DNA of 37,546 nucleotides from a virus (Duplodnaviria > Heunggongvirae > Uroviricota > Caudoviricetes): IMG/VR virus record IMGVR_UViG_2713896773_000006, positions 1 through 37,546 of that record, one strand, 5' to 3'. The translations under genes and the position numbers were made by a program. This document shows, piece after piece, positions 2,639-13,705 of this stretch. The notes under the pieces were generated by a model. That model did no database searches. It saw only the letters and a list, made by a program, of their open reading frames with translations, and had not been told where the DNA came from. How positions within the stretch are numbered: position 1 is the first letter of the stretch; each line of letters opens with the position of its first letter.

Positions 2639-2935
2639 TTACTGTCCCTCATCAATATCTGTTTGGTGGCGAGCAATTGTCTCTGCCATGTAGCGAATAA
2701 ATTCAGCGGCCCTTTCCTGAAACTCGACGTCATCATCGAATGCTTTGGAAATGGCATTCTTGCTGGCCCCGCGACGTTGCAACTCGTCAACGCACAACGA
2801 TTCCAGTTTGCTCTGTGGCAATCCTTTTTCGAGGTCATCAGCCAGTTCAGATTCACGCTCTTCTCTGGCTATTTGCTGATAATGGCGCGTCCAGTTCTGC
2901 GCCTCGATACGGTCTTGAACGAGATATGCAGCCAT
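2639..2935 (-). CDS. gam: Gam-like host nuclease (RecBCD) inhibitor
   Basis: From internal ATG at 2935 (AGGAG RBS): [98 protein letters not shown] (98 aa), close to the recalled lambda Gam short form. The upstream 43 codons of the track ORF are probably not translated. Confidence 0.8.
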
Positions 2936-3014
2936 AATAGGCTCCTGAAATTTGGTTGTGCGCTGCCCGTCTGCGATAGCCGGACGAGTAGGGGTAATGG
3001 GTGTTTGGTGTGGT

Positions 3015-3257
3015 TTACTTGCCGAGTGCCTTGTCGATGGCGGAACGAGCCATATCAAACTCATCTGTTTGACGGTCTGCTACTCTAACTACAGCCTGCA
3101 GAGCTTCCAGTAATTCAGGCGCTGCAGTAATGAGAGTCTTGTTTTCCTTTCTCGTCATTTCAAGTGGATATCCCTTTCCAAAGACTATGTGATGCTTGTT
3201 TCCCAAGCCCTCTTCATCCCAAAACCACGGACCGGGAGTTCCTTTAAATTCGCTCAT
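3015..3257 (-). CDS. hypothetical protein, [16 protein letters not shown] family (paralog A)
   Basis: 80 aa, [11 protein letters not shown]...[10 protein letters not shown]...KALGK; paralogous to the ORF at 3903..4190. Lies between kil-like and gam. Confidence 0.55.
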
Positions 3258-3260
3258 AAC

Positions 3261-3410
3261 TCACTTCCTGTGCCACGGAAAACCAATTGCCGCCTTCATA
3301 TCGTTGTAGGCTGACATCCACATTTCACTATCACCAATAAATCGGGCTATTACTGCTTTGTTCTGTGCAGCACGAAGCATCTGGTGATTAATGGCTATTT
3401 CATTGTGCAT
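3261..3410 (-). CDS. kil: Kil-like small protein (putative host cell-division inhibitor)
   Basis: 49-aa ORF below the track cutoff: MHNEIAINHQMLRAAQNKAVIARFIGDSEMWMSAYNDMKAAIGFPWHRK. GGAGG RBS. Resembles lambda Kil (FIGD... core, recalled) and sits where kil sits between cIII and gam. Confidence 0.4.
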   Translation of the reverse strand: MHNEIAINHQMLRAAQNKAVIARFIGDSEMWMSAYNDMKAAIGFPWHRK

Positions 3411-3529
3411 AACGCCTCCAGTTGTTTCTTTGCTGCTCTGATTAATTGTTTAACTCGGCGTGATAATTCAGATTCGTGCGGGTAGAAAGCGGACATGACG
3501 CCGCTACCCGCGAGCTGAAAGTGCATCAT
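3395..3529 (-). CDS. cIII: CIII-like protein (putative FtsH inhibitor stabilising CII)
   Basis: 44-aa ORF from ATG at 3529 with AAGGAG RBS: MMHFQLAGSGVMSAFYPHESELSRRVKQLIRAAKKQLEALCTMK. Same pattern as lambda CIII (AG...PSESLLERI.RKL, recalled). The 79-aa track ORF has no RBS for its longer start. Confidence 0.5.
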   Translation of the reverse strand: MMHFQLAGSGVMSAFYPHESELSRRVKQLIRAAKKQLEALCTMK

Positions 3530-3592
3530 GGGTAACTCCTTATATTTGATTGCATAACGAAAACGCCTCAAGTGAAGCGTTATTGGTATGCA

Positions 3593-3619
3593 TATAAAAA
3601 AGCCCTCACACTGGAGGGC
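3593..3619 (-). terminator. putative intrinsic terminator inside the leftward early operon
   Basis: Minus strand: GCCCTC-cagtgt-GAGGGC hairpin followed by TTTTTTAT. Confidence 0.4.
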
Positions 3620-3714
3620 AAAGAAGATTTCCAATAATCAGAACAAGTCGGCTACTGTTTAGTTACGAGCGACATTGCTCCGTGTATTCACTCGTTGGAA
3701 TGAATACACAGTGC

Positions 3715-3903
3715 TTATTCGTCATGCATTTCAGGTAATTCTTCGTATTCGACTCCCCATACGAGTTTACACCAAGTGACTCGCTCATATCTTTTACAAA
3801 AATCAGACCACATAACTTGTGTTCCATCATGGTTTGTTATTACTTCTGTAATATCACCAACACTAACAAAACTGGTATTAGAAGCAGTTATTTTTACTTT
3901 CAT
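3715..3903 (-). CDS. hypothetical small protein
   Basis: 62-aa ORF with ATG start, TAATG-coupled to the upstream gene. Confidence 0.4.
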   Translation of the reverse strand: MKVKITASNTSFVSVGDITEVITNHDGTQVMWSDFCKRYERVTWCKLVWGVEYEELPEMHDE

Positions 3904-4190
3904 TACTTATCCCCAAGAGCTTTTCTGATTGCTGCAAGACCTTTATTAACAGCTTCATACCATTCTGGATATGTTGTCGTTGTTCTATTTTTGGATTGCT
4001 TAAGTAATAACTGAAGTGCTTCGAGAAGGTCAGGTGCTGCCGCTATCAGTAGCGCATCCTCCCTTTCATTTCTTGTTGCTGCTTCAATGTATGTGTCACC
4101 AATCGTCACACCATGGAACGTAGTCATCATCTCGTTGACGTTTCTAACCGTGTACTTCCATTTACCAGGCGTACCCTTAAACTCTTTCAT
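3903..4190 (-). CDS. hypothetical protein, [16 protein letters not shown] family (paralog B)
   Basis: MKEFKGTPGKW...AAPDLLEALQ...KALGDK. ATG at 4190 with GAGGTG RBS preferred over the GTG track start at 4196. Confidence 0.55.
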   Translation of the reverse strand: MKEFKGTPGKWKYTVRNVNEMMTTFHGVTIGDTYIEAATRNEREDALLIAAAPDLLEALQLLLKQSKNRTTTTYPEWYEAVNKGLAAIRKALGDK

Positions 4191-4221
4191 ATCCACCTCT
4201 GTTGTTTATGCCAAAATAATT

Positions 4222-4464
4222 TTAACCATCAACAAACTCTTCTGGTAATTTATCAACCAGTTGATGACTTATTATCAGCCATTTGCCATCCTTCGTTTCG
4301 TATGCATATTTCTGGTCTTTTATCATCATGTGTTCGGCTACTGCCCTAACTGCCTGATCGGTGACATCTTCTCTCTTTCCTACCCACATTCCTTTTTCAG
4401 TGTTTAATGTTCCTTGAAAAATACGACCGCTTAATGGGCTTGCGCCCATAGTTTTTACTCTCAT
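4222..4464 (-). CDS. hypothetical protein
   Basis: 80-aa ORF with ATG start in the leftward operon. Confidence 0.4.
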   Translation of the reverse strand: MRVKTMGASPLSGRIFQGTLNTEKGMWVGKREDVTDQAVRAVAEHMMIKDQKYAYETKDGKWLIISHQLVDKLPEEFVDG

Positions 4465-4528
4465 GTATCAGCTCTCAAATAATTGGTTTGCTGCCAAAAC
4501 AATGAACCATCCGGAAATTCCAGATAGT

Positions 4529-4753
4529 TCATAATTCACTCTTCAATACTTCCAACTTACTAATCGCCGATAGATATCCGCGCTGATAGGGCATCATCAT
4601 TCCTTCGAGCTTGCCACTTCTTAACTCCTCCCTGAGCAATTGTATTGCTTGATCAATAACCTCTGCCTTAGCGTCCTTTATGGCTTGCTTGCGGGGCTTT
4701 GCTTTCTGCTTTGGCAGATTTCTCAAGCATGATGGAATGTATGTTTGATTCAT
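4529..4753 (-). CDS. hypothetical protein
   Basis: 74 aa from ATG at 4753 (GAGG RBS; track start 4756 is GTG). First intact ORF downstream of the N-like remnant. Confidence 0.45.
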   Translation of the reverse strand: MNQTYIPSCLRNLPKQKAKPRKQAIKDAKAEVIDQAIQLLREELRSGKLEGMMMPYQRGYLSAISKLEVLKSEL

Positions 4754-4756
4754 CAC

Positions 4757-5164: not shown

Positions 5165-5896
5165 TTAGTAATCAACTACAGACCACCAGAAAATTCTTCC
5201 GATGATCTCAATGTCACTTAGATTCTTTTCTTCTTGTGGGTATTCCAGTGAGTTAAAGCTTCTAATGCTTACCTTGTCAGGCCCTGTTCGAAAGAGAATC
5301 TTAATGCGTTTCCAACCGTTCTCGTTAATGGCGTAAATCTTTCCGTCAACTATTTTCTTATCGTTGGTGTTAACAGCAACTGTTGTTCCATCAGGAATGT
5401 TTGGCTCCATGCTGTTGCCACGAGCCGGAAAACAAACAACCCCGCTTCCATCACTGTTCGCGCCAACTCTGCGAAGGGTTGATTTGGAAAAGCGCAACAT
5501 AAAGCCGTTGTGATCTTCATCAATCACCCGACCATCCCCGCATGCAAACTCAATATCTTTAAGGTAAGGAATTTCAACTTCATCACCTCTTAAAGGCGTT
5601 TCTCCATCCCATGGGTCCAAACATCCCCACGTGCTTTCATGAGGAATAGAAGATTTTGGATCATAAGGTTCAACTCCCTCATCACGCATTGGCCCAGTTC
5701 CATCGGAAAGCCATTCCGTACGAACTCCAAGCACTTTTGATATTTCAAAAAGTTTGCGCGTATTGCGTGTTTTTCCAGACGTAAGTTTCCAGACGCTTGG
5801 CTGAGACATGCCAACAGCATTGCCAAGAGAAGCCTGAGTAAACCCAGCCTGATCCATCGCGTATGTAAGCCTTTGAGAAAAAGTATCTAGTTTCAT
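5165..5896 (-). CDS. cI: CI-type prophage repressor (HTH N-terminus, S24 LexA-like autocleavage domain)
   Basis: 243 aa. N-terminal HTH (QASLGNAVGMSQPSVWKL), C-terminal Ser/Lys dyad context (GNSMEPNIPDG ... NGWKRIKIL). Divergent from cro, as in lambdoid immunity regions. Confidence 0.9.
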   Translation of the reverse strand: MKLDTFSQRLTYAMDQAGFTQASLGNAVGMSQPSVWKLTSGKTRNTRKLFEISKVLGVRTEWLSDGTGPMRDEGVEPYDPKSSIPHESTWGCLDPWDGETPLRGDEVEIPYLKDIEFACGDGRVIDEDHNGFMLRFSKSTLRRVGANSDGSGVVCFPARGNSMEPNIPDGTTVAVNTNDKKIVDGKIYAINENGWKRIKILFRTGPDKVSIRSFNSLEYPQEEKNLSDIEIIGRIFWWSVVDY

Positions 5897-6683: not shown

Positions 6684-6845
6684 ATGACAAAACGTCGTAA
6701 GAAATACCAGGAAAAAGAAGAGATTCGACACCCTGATTCACCTGAGGGATTAGTGGTAGCCGCAGCAAATAACAGGGCTTTCGCAGAGCGCCTTGTTGGT
6801 GTTTACAGACTAGCCAAAGCAGGAGTGAAACATGGGCGTCGTTAA
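6684..6845 (+). CDS. small hypothetical basic protein (53 aa)
   Basis: MTKRRKKYQEKEEIRHPDSPEGLVVAAANNRAFAERLVGVYRLAKAGVKHGRR; AGGAG RBS. Below the ORF-track cutoff. Confidence 0.3.
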   Translation: MTKRRKKYQEKEEIRHPDSPEGLVVAAANNRAFAERLVGVYRLAKAGVKHGRR

Positions 6846-7722
6846 GTTAGCTGATTACAGGCATAACCCTGTACAACATCAGGAGGCATCCAGTATGGGG
6901 TATGTCTCTATACACCGCCAGTTTATGGACAGCAGGCTCTATAAGGACTCTCAGGCAGTACATCTTTGGCTTCACTTAATCCTCAAGGCTAATCACGAAT
7001 CTACTGTCGTCAATACGGATATCGGTCCGATAACTGTTGATCGCGGTCAGATGATAACTGGACGCCCGTCGCTGGTCAGAGAAACATTCATCCCCGACAA
7101 CAAAGTTAGGAGCTTATTACGGACTTTTGAGTCGAAAGGGATGCTTAATATTTGCTCGATGGGGAAGAAATTTAGCCTGTTTACAATCGTTAAATATGAC
7201 GATTTTCAGGCAAAAAATTGTCCAACGGTTGTCCAACGGTTGTCCAACGCAAACACCAGTAATGGCGCGGCTCTCAGCGGAGATTGTCCAACGGTTGTCC
7301 AACGGTTGTCCATAAACAATAATATAAATAATATCTCTAATACTGACGTATTAGAGAGTGCCACAGCAGACAAAAAGTCTGACAAGAAAAAACCTTCCGT
7401 CAGCTGTCAGGATGTTGTCGATGCTTACCACGAAATCCTTCCTGAAGCGCCAAGAATCCGCGCACTGAATGACAAGCGTAAAAACCAGATCCGAACGTTC
7501 TGGCGCAAAGCCGGAGTGATAACCCGCCAGCTTGACGGGCATGGGTTCACGATGCAGGACTGGAGAAATTATTTGAGCTACGTAGGCGAAAATTGCCGAT
7601 GGATGTTCGAAGAGCGCCCAAACCATCAACGCGGAACCGTCTGGCACAAAAAGGGATTTGATTTCCTGCTTAACGACAATACCTACCTGAAAGTTCGTGA
7701 GGGTGAACACGATGACCGATAA
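6832..7722 (+). CDS. replication initiator (lambda O-like / P22 gp18-like), iterons embedded
   Basis: 296 aa directly upstream of, and overlapping, the DnaB-type helicase gene. The central coding region carries direct repeats, as ori does inside lambda O. Alternative start ATG 6895 has a GGAGG RBS. Confidence 0.7.
   Translation: MGVVKLADYRHNPVQHQEASSMGYVSIHRQFMDSRLYKDSQAVHLWLHLILKANHESTVVNTDIGPITVDRGQMITGRPSLVRETFIPDNKVRSLLRTFESKGMLNICSMGKKFSLFTIVKYDDFQAKNCPTVVQRLSNANTSNGAALSGDCPTVVQRLSINNNINNISNTDVLESATADKKSDKKKPSVSCQDVVDAYHEILPEAPRIRALNDKRKNQIRTFWRKAGVITRQLDGHGFTMQDWRNYLSYVGENCRWMFEERPNHQRGTVWHKKGFDFLLNDNTYLKVREGEHDDR
7218..7345. repeat. candidate replication origin: about six TTGTCCAACGG iterons in two clusters plus an AT-rich tract
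   Basis: Directly visible: TTGTCCAACGG at 7218, 7229, 7240 (variant), 7284, 7295, 7306 (partial), then ATAAACAATAATATAAATAATATCTCTAATA. Confidence 0.6.
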
Positions 7723-10177
7723 TTTTTATGCGCCGCCCCATAGCATCGAGGCAGAGCAGGCGGTGATTGGTGGATTGCTTCTGGATGATGACAGCAGTGA
7801 GCGCGTCCAGAAAGTTCTAGCGATGCTGAAGCCCGATTCATTTTACAGCAGATCACACAAAATCCTTTTCGAAGAAATAACCAGAATGCACCGGGAGCAA
7901 AAGCCAGTAGATGGCCTGACGCTTTTCGATGAACTGGAGCGTAAATCGTTAACGGCGTCTGTTGGCGGTTTTGCTTATATCGCTGAGATCGCAAAGAACA
8001 CGCCAAGCGCCGCAAACATCGTTGCCTATGCAATGCAGGTTCGTGAAACCGCAATGGAACGCTACGCCATCAACCGCATGACTGAAGCGACGGAATTGCT
8101 CTATTCCCGCAACGGAATGACTGCAACGCAGAAGTACGAAGCTATTCAGGCGATTTTCACGCAACTGACAGACCATGCAAAAACCGGATCGCGTCGCGGC
8201 CTTCGCTCATTTGGTGAGGTCATGGAAGACTGGGTTAGCGACCTTGATAAGCGATTTGACCCGTCAGGCGAACAACGAGGAATGAGCACAGGAATACCAT
8301 CGCTGGACAGGATGCTGTCACCGAAAGGTCTGGTGAAAGGCTCTCTGTTTGTCATTGGCGCTCGCCCTAAGATGGGGAAAGCGCAACCGCTTAATTCACG
8401 CATTTTGCTTGCTGATGGTTCATGGACAACATTTCGTGACGTATGTGTTGGAGATTCCCTAGCATCAGTGGATGGACAACCATCATTCGTGTCTGGAGTT
8501 TTTCCTCAAGGGGAGCGAGATATTTACCGAGTTACGTTCTCTGACGGAAGAACCGTTGATTGCGCGGATGATCATTTGTGGGAAATTCATAGTAACCGTA
8601 TTACCGGTGGCGTTGATGTTGTAGACACCTGCCGCCTACGGGACATGATGGAATGCGTTCGCTATCAAAGCCGCATTCATGTTCCTGGTATTAGCGGTGA
8701 CTTCGGATTGCCTGTTGATTTAGGGATTAGCCCATGGCTGTTAGGTGCGTTACTTGGCGATGGAAATCTTGCAGGTACGCCACGAATCAGCATGACGGAA
8801 CCATACATCATTGAGCGAGTAAGATCTGAAGTGGGTGACGATATTGAAGTCAGACATGTTTCTGGCTGCGATTACTCCCTACCTCACAAGTTTAGCCGCA
8901 AATTATCTCTTACGCGGGTTATGCAACGGCTTGGTATCTACGGCCGGATGTCAGAGATTAAAATTATCCCGGATATTATTTTTTCTGCTGATAAGCAAAC
9001 TCGTATTGATGTTCTATGCGGATTACTTGAAACCGATGGTTGGGTTGAAGGAAATAATGCCCTGCGCTTTAGCTCGGCAAGCAAGTTCCTGTCAGATGGT
9101 GTAAAGCGGCTGGTGCATTCTCTTGGTGGCGTGTGTCGTATGACAACCAAACAGGAGCCGAAATTCAGTTATAAGGGAGAAATGCGCAAAGGTATGGATG
9201 CCCATATTTGCGCAATCAGGTTGCCTGATGAGGTTCTATCACACATAAAATCTCCACGCCTGAAGCAAAAATTCACTGCAAAACGCATCAAAACAAGTGA
9301 GCCTGTTATCACGTCGGTTGAGTATATTGGACGTGAAGAGTGCATTTGCATCATGGTATCCCACGAGAGACATTTGTATGCAACTGACGGATACATTCTA
9401 ACCCACAACACCACGCTATACAGCCAGATGGCAATCAATTGCGCAGTGCATGAGAAAAAGCCCGCTCTGATGTTCAGCCTTGAAATGCCAGGTGATCAGA
9501 TACTGGAAAAACTGGTAGGGCAGAAGTCTGGTGTTAACCCGAATATTTTTTACCTTCCGGCGACAAATGACGCCGATGACGGCTATCAGGGTGATTACGA
9601 TGGTGACTTCAACAGGGCGATCGAAACAGCCAATCGCTTGAGTGAAATCGACATGCTTTACATCGACGACACGCCGGGATTATCTCTGGCTCAAATCGTC
9701 AGCGAAAGCCGTCGAATCAAGCGAGAAAAAGGATGTGTTGGCATGATTCTGGTCGATTACCTGACACTAATGACCGCTGAGAAGGCCGATCGCAACGACC
9801 TTGCTTACGGCATGATCACCAAAGGACTGAAGAACCTTGCCAAAGAGCTTGATTGCGTTGTTGTGCTTCTGACACAGCTTAACCGCGCACTGGAAAGCCG
9901 AACCAATAAACGCCCATTACCAAGTGACTCACGAGATACAGGGCAGATTGAACAGGATTGCGATTATTGGGTCGGGATCCATCGTGAAGGCGCTTTTGAT
10001 GACAGTGTTCCACCTGGGGAAACCGAACTAATCCTTCGTCTCAATCGTCATGGCTATACCGGCACGGTGTATTGCATTCAGGCAAATGGCGCTATTTATG
10101 ACACAGACCAACAGTCTGCTGAAATGCGCCGCCGTGAACGTGAGGAACCGCAGTCCAAGAAGAAAGGAGGATTCTGA
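7712..10177 (+). CDS. dnaB: DnaB-family replicative helicase with an intein in the P-loop
   Basis: N-terminus MTDNFYAPPHSIEAEQAVIGGLL is DnaB-like. The Walker A is split: ...GARPKMGK | 343 inserted aa | TTLYSQMAINCAVHEKKPALMFSLEMP... (E. coli DnaB ARPSMGKTTFAMNL...LIFSLEMP, recalled). ATG at 7712 preferred over the GTG track start 7697. Confidence 0.9.
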   Translation: MTDNFYAPPHSIEAEQAVIGGLLLDDDSSERVQKVLAMLKPDSFYSRSHKILFEEITRMHREQKPVDGLTLFDELERKSLTASVGGFAYIAEIAKNTPSAANIVAYAMQVRETAMERYAINRMTEATELLYSRNGMTATQKYEAIQAIFTQLTDHAKTGSRRGLRSFGEVMEDWVSDLDKRFDPSGEQRGMSTGIPSLDRMLSPKGLVKGSLFVIGARPKMGKAQPLNSRILLADGSWTTFRDVCVGDSLASVDGQPSFVSGVFPQGERDIYRVTFSDGRTVDCADDHLWEIHSNRITGGVDVVDTCRLRDMMECVRYQSRIHVPGISGDFGLPVDLGISPWLLGALLGDGNLAGTPRISMTEPYIIERVRSEVGDDIEVRHVSGCDYSLPHKFSRKLSLTRVMQRLGIYGRMSEIKIIPDIIFSADKQTRIDVLCGLLETDGWVEGNNALRFSSASKFLSDGVKRLVHSLGGVCRMTTKQEPKFSYKGEMRKGMDAHICAIRLPDEVLSHIKSPRLKQKFTAKRIKTSEPVITSVEYIGREECICIMVSHERHLYATDGYILTHNTTLYSQMAINCAVHEKKPALMFSLEMPGDQILEKLVGQKSGVNPNIFYLPATNDADDGYQGDYDGDFNRAIETANRLSEIDMLYIDDTPGLSLAQIVSESRRIKREKGCVGMILVDYLTLMTAEKADRNDLAYGMITKGLKNLAKELDCVVVLLTQLNRALESRTNKRPLPSDSRDTGQIEQDCDYWVGIHREGAFDDSVPPGETELILRLNRHGYTGTVYCIQANGAIYDTDQQSAEMRRREREEPQSKKKGGF
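8381..9409 (+). mobile_element. intein (343 aa) with LAGLIDADG homing-endonuclease domain, probably class 3
   Basis: Insert begins with Ala and ends ...ILTHN, with +1 Thr. Two LAGLIDADG-like motifs (LLGALLGDGNL, LCGLLETDGWV). Block-B-like DDHLW, block-F-like Cys (EECICIM) and Thr before the terminal His-Asn give the WCT pattern. Boundaries inferred from the extein alignment. Confidence 0.8.
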
Positions 10178-13549: not shown

Positions 13550-13624
13550 GGGTCAGTCGTATAAAGGTCATTACGGAAGGCTGTTAACCTTCTTATCGTG
13601 GTTCGAGTCCACGCTGTCCCGCCA
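13550..13624 (+). tRNA. tRNA-Asn(GUU)-like, one acceptor-stem mismatch
   Basis: Hand-folded cloverleaf: acceptor GGGTCAG/CTGTCCC (T-T mismatch at pair 4), anticodon stem GAAGG/CCTTC with loop CTGTTAA, T-arm CGTGG-TTCGAGT-CCACG, 3' GCCA. Confidence 0.5.
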
Positions 13625-13629
13625 AACAT

Positions 13630-13705
13630 GCTGGTTTAGCTCCAATGGTAGAGCAGTCGCCTTGTAAGCGAATGGGTAGCGGTTCAAGTCCGTTAACCAG
13701 CACCA
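13630..13705 (+). tRNA. tRNA-Thr(UGU)
   Basis: Hand-folded: acceptor GCTGGTT/AACCAGC, D-arm GCTC-CAATGGTA-GAGC, anticodon loop CTTGTAA, T-arm AGCGG-TTCAAGT-CCGTT, 3' ACCA. Confidence 0.65.

Follow-up and report, generated by a model that had tools for sequence, protein, structure and literature searches.

Two XkdD/Y8K6 family proteins in the early-left region of a P22-like or lambdoid Escherichia phage or prophage and the modular make-up of their family

The viral DNA analysed here, a stretch of 37,546 nucleotides (nt) from IMG/VR record IMGVR_UViG_2713896773_000006 (hereafter the window), comes from a P22-like or lambdoid Escherichia phage or prophage. Its early-left accessory region holds two small leftward open reading frames (ORFs), ORF A and ORF B, which on sequence grounds are, with near certainty, members of the XkdD/Y8K6 family (Pfam PF27050, PHROG 1273). 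The family is already catalogued, with no assigned function, and the two genes add new members to it. New in this analysis are this placement, a two-slot structure, a cassette architecture with a mapped recombination junction, and the pattern of selection. The best explanation is that the genes encode early accessory binding proteins in which a conserved scaffold would carry exchangeable specificity cassettes; the whole account, family membership included, is given a probability of about one half. The two ORFs are:

3015-3257, minus strand: ORF A, 80 amino acids (aa); A-type XkdD/Y8K6 protein, in the slot between kil and gam
3903-4190, minus strand: ORF B, 95 aa; B-type XkdD/Y8K6 protein, in the slot of P22 orf78

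The initial annotation had described the two products as sharing an N-terminal, a central and a C-terminal motif while differing in between, and this is borne out. Pairwise BLASTP aligned them with 34 identities in 93 positions (37%, E=5e-9), and the phrog_1273 profile matched each of them end to end (ORF A residues 1-80, E=3.8e-19; ORF B residues 1-94, E=1.3e-26). From the pairwise score and the common full-length profile it follows that the likeness is homology and not chance, which is what the proposed pairwise alignment had been meant to decide. Nothing was found in favour of the view that the motifs are shared by chance or that the ORFs are not genes, and we regard that view as practically excluded: besides the alignment and profile scores, it is contradicted by purifying selection, by close homologues in the hundreds and distant ones in the thousands, and by the Shine-Dalgarno sequences that precede both ORFs within a tightly packed operon. 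At the DNA level, only 14 of 35 aligned identical residues are encoded by the same codon. Synonymous sites are therefore saturated, the copies are old, and the likeness has been kept at the protein level.

Translation of ORF B from the ATG at 4190 gives the N-terminus MKEFKGTPGKW. A second possible start, a GTG at 4196, lies inside the ribosome-binding site GAGGTG. We assign ATG 4190 as the correct start because it yields the consensus N-terminus of the family and is preceded by GAGGTG as a Shine-Dalgarno sequence.

The family, which could not be placed from the sequence alone, turns out to be PF27050 (Phage_P22_Y8K6), with P22 orf78 as its founder; the corresponding RefSeq product name is "XkdD/Y8K6 family phage-associated protein". 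The precomputed PF27050 tag stands on all of the 240+ homologues of ORF A and ORF B listed in a large protein database, including the cluster representatives of ORF A (98% identical) and ORF B (99% identical); one further locus (L002) carries a copy 100% identical to ORF B. Our own Pfam-A and NCBIfam scans of both ORFs returned nothing relevant, in the case of Pfam because the copy scanned did not contain the PF27050 model, and 139 family members compared with Pfam gave only scattered single matches. A hidden Markov model (HMM) of the family, built from 145 family representatives together with ORF A and ORF B, picked out P22 orf78 (E=1.1e-15) and none of the other early proteins of P22. A putative link to XkdD of Bacillus subtilis PBSX is given by the RefSeq family name. 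XkdD likewise lies in the repressor-proximal early operon, that of PBSX, and is not known to have a function.

At E<=1e-10, a search of 1.84 billion representative proteins with the family profile returned 1,641 representative clusters; relaxing the threshold to E<=1e-3 raised this to 76,054, a number that Ala/Leu-rich helices may inflate. With one genome scanned for each species, copies in prophages came up in Pseudomonadota, Verrucomicrobiota, Planctomycetota, Bacteroidota, Acidobacteriota, Chloroflexota, Gemmatimonadota and other phyla. Few small early proteins of tailed phages and prophages are commoner than those of the XkdD/Y8K6 family, which spans many bacterial phyla, and P22, one of the best-studied phages, has one. 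Members are about 80-120 aa long, are as a rule encoded in the early-left operon next to the repressor, and form a single small domain with three conserved blocks, and all of the invariant or near-invariant positions are present in both ORFs. The source names read "hypothetical protein" throughout the homologues examined. Full-text literature searches on the family names, XkdD, P22 orf78 and the central motif returned nothing on function, and the PADLOC-DB profiles gave no match at E<=0.1 for ORF A or ORF B.

The Ead/Ea22-like family (PF13935) resembles this one in also consisting of early-left accessory proteins, and some phage records label XkdD/Y8K6 members "EaD/Ea22-like". Membership in it was rejected: neither ORF matched PF13935 at E<=10, the family HMM reached only E=0.089 (1.7 bits) against P22 EaD, and the prophages concerned have true Ead_Ea22 genes at other sites. 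The label "VirE domain protein" in Salmonella phage 40 belongs to an over-extended ORF and is an unreliable annotation, not a real fusion.

Conserved blocks, exchangeable segments and predicted fold

In alignments of the family, three near-invariant blocks are separated by two segments, V1 and V2, that vary in both length and sequence. The N-terminal block, or strap, has the consensus FKGTPGxW, with an invariant W and with K5, T7 and G9 conserved in at least 95% of members. The central block reads (A)-N-A-x-L-I-A-A-A-P-E/D-L-L-E-A-L-Q and the C-terminal block A-x-A-A-I-x-K-A-L-G, in which I, K and A are about 99% conserved. In the two ORFs these parts are laid out as follows:

4158-4184, minus strand: ORF B N-terminal block, EFKGTPGKW (residues 3-11)
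4059-4157, minus strand: ORF B V1, type V1-0 (residues 12-44); predicted three-stranded beta meander
4011-4058, minus strand: ORF B central block, DALLIAAAPDLLEALQ (residues 45-60); the recombination junction with phage Dewey lies inside it
3939-4010, minus strand: ORF B V2, type V2-0 (residues 61-84); predicted end of helix 1, loop and start of helix 2
3912-3938, minus strand: ORF B C-terminal block, LAAIRKALG (residues 85-93)
3225-3251, minus strand: ORF A N-terminal block, EFKGTPGPW (residues 3-11)
3144-3224, minus strand: ORF A V1, type V1-1 (residues 12-38); low model confidence
3096-3143, minus strand: ORF A central block (residues 39-54); predicted helix, predicted local distance difference test (pLDDT) score about 90
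3051-3095, minus strand: ORF A V2, the short "canonical" type V2-1 (residues 55-69)
3021-3050, minus strand: ORF A C-terminal block (residues 70-79)

Among 230 enterobacterial members, a sample biased towards relatives of ORF A and ORF B, V1 fell into 19 types and V2 into 44, in 75 combinations. V1-0, the type of ORF B, was paired with 25 V2 types and V1-1, that of ORF A, with 28, while V2-1 of ORF A was found with 17 V1 types and occurs in distant members as well (for example P0314 and P0326). V1 and V2 come as discrete types that reassort freely between phages, the exchange taking place by homologous recombination within the coding DNA of the central block.

A junction of this kind was mapped by comparison with Escherichia phage Dewey (PQ850600), the only cultured phage found with the same pair in both slots (CDS0038 and CDS0043, annotated merely as hypothetical proteins). 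Its ORF A homologue is 98.8% identical, and its homologue of ORF B shows no amino-acid difference up to and including residue 60. The DNA of the window and of Dewey agrees at 100% from about 30 nt upstream of ORF B through codon 49; the first mismatch falls in codon 50 (about position 4041), inside the block coding for AAAPDLLEALQ. Beyond this junction V2, the C-terminal block and the downstream gene have been replaced and are wholly different, and identity resumes at the stop codon of the downstream gene. An E. coli GS04 prophage presents the converse case: its protein WP_000394578.1 (62% identity to ORF B) shares V2 and the C-terminal half with ORF B but has another V1 cassette. A coupling of V2 type to the downstream gene was not supported, since one V2 type precedes three different downstream genes.

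Within the B type, V1 evolves at a ratio of nonsynonymous to synonymous substitution rates (dN/dS) of 0.06-0.08, at dS values of 0.2-1.7. This strong purifying selection shows V1 to be a constrained module and not a free linker. Strong selection on the core as well as on the modules is suggested by blocks that are nearly unchanged across phyla, by the wholesale swapping of cassettes and by conservation within cassette types.

The AlphaFold2 model of ORF B (pLDDT 77, predicted template modelling score 0.65) consists of a coil containing the N-terminal block, three short strands within V1 (residues 11-18, 23-30 and 33-36) and two helices (42-67 and 76-91). In the model of ORF A, made from a 139-sequence alignment, a helical hairpin is well defined (pLDDT about 90) and the N-terminal half poorly so. 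The predicted fold is a small variable beta unit (V1) joined to an Ala-rich alpha-hairpin, whose helices carry the central and C-terminal blocks and whose loop region is V2.

Of the searches suggested by the initial annotation, those with profiles found the family, whereas no solved structure was matched. Foldseek against the PDB gave a best E of 0.49, so that no solved structure resembles either model, and the BFVD search returned only uncharacterised family members. The best phmmer match in the PDB was that of ORF B to RNA polymerase beta' (E=0.075, residues 1225-1282); the family profile did not reproduce it, and it was treated as chance. The best PDB match of the family profile itself, to a secretin N-domain, was not significant (E=0.12). 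The central block, NA.LI.AAP[ED]LL..L, resembles the repeated strand-turn-helix motif of the secretin (GspD) N-domain (PDB 6hcg_A, 301-339; NALIVTAxPxxLxxL), and at this score the two are at most analogous local structures.

Natural two-unit proteins also occur. Two complete units are present in P0279, P0322, P0323 and P0370, and a full unit plus a hairpin-only unit in P0239, P0249, P0356 and P0371; the latter forms mark the hairpin as a separable module, and it probably pairs with another hairpin. P0382, at 186 aa, is a further fused two-unit example.

Two slots in the early-left operon

The initial annotation had placed the pair on either side of cIII and kil, and the PHROG assignments of cIII (3395-3529) and kil (3261-3410) agree; this is the early-left (PL) accessory region. 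Genes for cI, cro, cII, cIII, kil, gam and recT all lie around the pair within the window. In leftward order from the repressor the neighbourhood reads:

5165-5896: cI-type S24 repressor
4529-4756, minus strand: Lys-rich protein of 75 aa (phrog_5305), encoded between PL and ORF B
4222-4464, minus strand: DUF7446 protein, between PL and ORF B
3715-3903, minus strand: 62-aa ORF of unknown function (phrog_10407), its ATG overlapping the ORF B stop codon (TAATG)
3602-3619, minus strand: tL-like intrinsic terminator hairpin, GCCCTC-loop-GAGGGC followed by T6
3395-3529, minus strand: cIII, 44 aa (phrog_550; PF02061 in syntenic loci)
3261-3410, minus strand: kil, 49 aa (phrog_2055, E=1.3e-30)
2639-2935, minus strand: lambda-type gam, 98 aa (PF06064, E=5e-51), immediately downstream of ORF A
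1722-2636: recT, next after gam
1256-1744: Mu-Gam-like gene, next after recT

A terminator and a PL-like promoter lie between the repressor gene and the 75-aa ORF. The tL-like hairpin forms the boundary between the segment with ORF B and that with cIII, kil and ORF A; the HK97 and HK106 records annotate a terminator on DNA matching 3602-3619, and P22 has one in the equivalent place. The ATG of ORF A is 3 nt past the stop codon of kil.

B-type genes recur between N/ral and the tL terminator/cIII, which is the slot of P22 orf78. In Citrobacter and E. coli prophages, as in phage Dewey, A-type genes (those with the V1 of ORF A) occupy the interval from kil to gam, and in 5/5 contexts seen they stand directly upstream of gam. 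More widely, across 165 family loci, an S24 repressor and N are found upstream and recombination genes downstream, the commonest of the latter being Erf/Rad52-like genes, RecT, a YqaJ-type exonuclease and Gam.

The existence of separate slot-bound lineages, and of a phage, Dewey, that carries both, argues that the pair is a combination of two old, anciently diverged lineages. The two genes had been called paralogous; they are indeed homologous, but a local duplication as the origin of the pair is ruled out by the saturated synonymous sites and by the presence of the A-type slot in other prophages. Two copies are rare, being found in 3/82 loci of a first set, the window and Dewey included, and in 3/165 loci of a wider set, to which an adjacent pair merged by ORF de-duplication has to be added (L083/L084). 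The family occurs at 128 places in 122 phage records, and the whole 2900-4300 stretch was present in 0/5,426 complete E. coli genomes. Other two-copy prophages or viral contigs are L083/L084 (5610-6333), L120 (4989-5680), L114 and L042, some with the copies directly adjacent.

P22 orf78 is a family homologue of 78 aa with central and C-terminal blocks like those of ORF A and ORF B, and it occupies the ORF B slot, downstream of ral and upstream of orf87/gene 17, the tL terminator and c3. It differs in having IPHW in place of the FKGTPGxW strap, and it has its own V1 and V2. P22 has one family copy, and after kil it carries arf in place of an XkdD/Y8K6 gene. Arf is a positional analogue of ORF A, in that its small gene immediately follows kil and immediately precedes the recombination module; unlike ORF A it has 47 aa, does not have the three blocks and shows no sequence similarity to the family (E=0.47). 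In E. coli GS04 the order is N, ral, the XkdD/Y8K6 gene, the 62-aa ORF, cIII and kil. The 62-aa ORF, which in the window is translationally coupled to ORF B through the TAATG overlap, immediately follows the B-type gene in about 8 loci and is replaced by other small genes elsewhere, so that it is a frequent and not an obligatory neighbour.

Klebsiella phage MEW1 (L169, MT894004; Jedunavirus) has a family member at 4001-4315 which, together with one more small gene, separates the head-morphogenesis gene from the portal gene and is read from the opposite strand. The insertion is moron-like, lies far from any early operon, and speaks for accessory or moron behaviour.

Possible functions of the pair

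In the reading that we favour, XkdD/Y8K6 proteins would be non-enzymatic binders. The strap and the hairpin would form a common scaffold, probably a dimerisation unit, which we infer because natural tandem fusions exist, including some with an extra hairpin-only unit. V1 and V2 would specify what is bound, and two copies with differing V1 and V2 would provide the phage with two specificities. Expression of ORF B would start from PL at once, whereas that of ORF A would need read-through of tL, giving the two proteins different times of action. Their role is likely that of dispensable accessories to host takeover, to counter-defence or to competition between phages. The binding-scaffold part, taken alone, has about one chance in three. 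A bolder version, that the family is a general cassette-display scaffold in which the coding DNA of a near-invariant core of strap and hairpin doubles as the recombination joint for two independently exchangeable specificity modules, we consider rather improbable; if it holds, phages would combine the modules into binders of variable targets in hosts or rival phages, and the phage of the window would carry two of them, timed differently by the tL terminator.

Several observations weigh against the favoured reading. Neither experiment nor structure links a family member with any partner or phenotype. The proposed dimerisation draws on the fusions only, and the difference in timing on a consensus terminator; the looser of the two family counts, as noted, may also be inflated. 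In addition, the near-invariant polar residues K5, T7, N39, E/D48, E51, Q54 and K76 exceed what a bare scaffold would need, and they may mark a conserved ligand site.

This last point leads to the principal competing explanation, a tentative one with perhaps a quarter of the weight, in which the conserved blocks are themselves the functional site for a universal bacterial or phage partner, such as the recombination or replication machinery, and V1 and V2 only tune it. The blocks are letter-perfect across phyla, polar residues included. The neighbourhood fits too, with recombination genes the commonest downstream neighbours in the 165 loci, the A-type gene always abutting gam in the contexts seen, and ORF A in the place of P22 arf, an Erf cofactor. 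This synteny may, however, merely mirror the general layout of early-left operons, and members such as that of MEW1 are also found isolated among structural genes. P22 runs these recombination modules with no gene in the kil-gam slot, and lambda is not known to have one there either. The family shows no similarity to Arf, and the strong purifying selection on V1 within a type shows that V1 is no mere decoration.

A more specific version of the binding-protein explanation takes the proteins as inhibitors of restriction or other defence systems, or of prophage exclusion, with cassettes diversified by an arms race and a different system neutralised by each copy. This gives specific form to the anti-defence suggestion of the initial annotation; it is plausible from the neighbourhood, and as a full account unlikely. 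The P22 family gene stands between ral, which alleviates restriction, and gene 17, which allows escape from exclusion by a resident prophage; the E. coli GS04 member directly follows ral, and the genes are accessory, mobile and variable in their cassettes. One member, AII27858.1, was picked as UDP0123 for a screen of 200 accessory genes (bioRxiv 10.1101/2023.04.06.535777), but it goes unmentioned in the text of that screen and has no recorded phenotype, a silence that also tells against the favoured reading. The family motifs are absent from the supplements of two other anti-defence studies, there is no PADLOC match, and the wholesale replacement of cassettes under purifying selection differs from the point-mutational positive selection typical of arms races.

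The helical hairpin, which is likely to dimerise, and the position of the genes among the regulators N and cIII would also suit a small Rop-like dimer binding RNA or DNA, as a regulator of early transcription or of the lysis-lysogeny decision. ORF B is basic, with an isoelectric point (pI) of 8.9, but the family is mostly acidic (median pI 5.3; ORF A 5.6), and no helix-turn-helix or other nucleic-acid-binding signature was found in Pfam or NCBIfam. This composition and the missing signature make a nucleic-acid-binding role unlikely, and the Rop-like form of it highly so.

A phenotype or partner for any single member would annotate thousands of "hypothetical" phage genes, and could also reveal modular targeting of host or competitor functions. 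Dewey is cultured and carries the same gene pair, which makes the question directly testable.

Other features of the window

In the early-left region, a hairpin with a 14-bp stem (4502-4532) follows the 75-aa ORF, and a canonical N protein rich in Arg was not recognised. The gam gene is also listed as a 141-aa ORF (2639-3064, minus strand; L001 4040-4465), which is over-extended, the Pfam Gam domain covering the version that starts at ATG 2935; the GenBank record of Dewey uses the long version, which there overlaps its ORF A homologue.

Further along, a gene for a DnaB-type replicative helicase (7697-10177, plus strand, 826 aa) is split by an intein with a LAGLIDADG_3 homing-endonuclease domain, and the N and C domains of DnaB lie on either side of residues ~230-570. 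A replication-initiator-like gene (ORF 6832-7722) contains 11-bp iterons, TTGTCCAACGG, in two clusters of three that lie 66 bp apart (7206-7323, plus strand); this region is probably the phage origin. Adjacent genes for tRNA-Asn(GTT) and tRNA-Thr(TGT) lie at 13550-13705 (plus strand).

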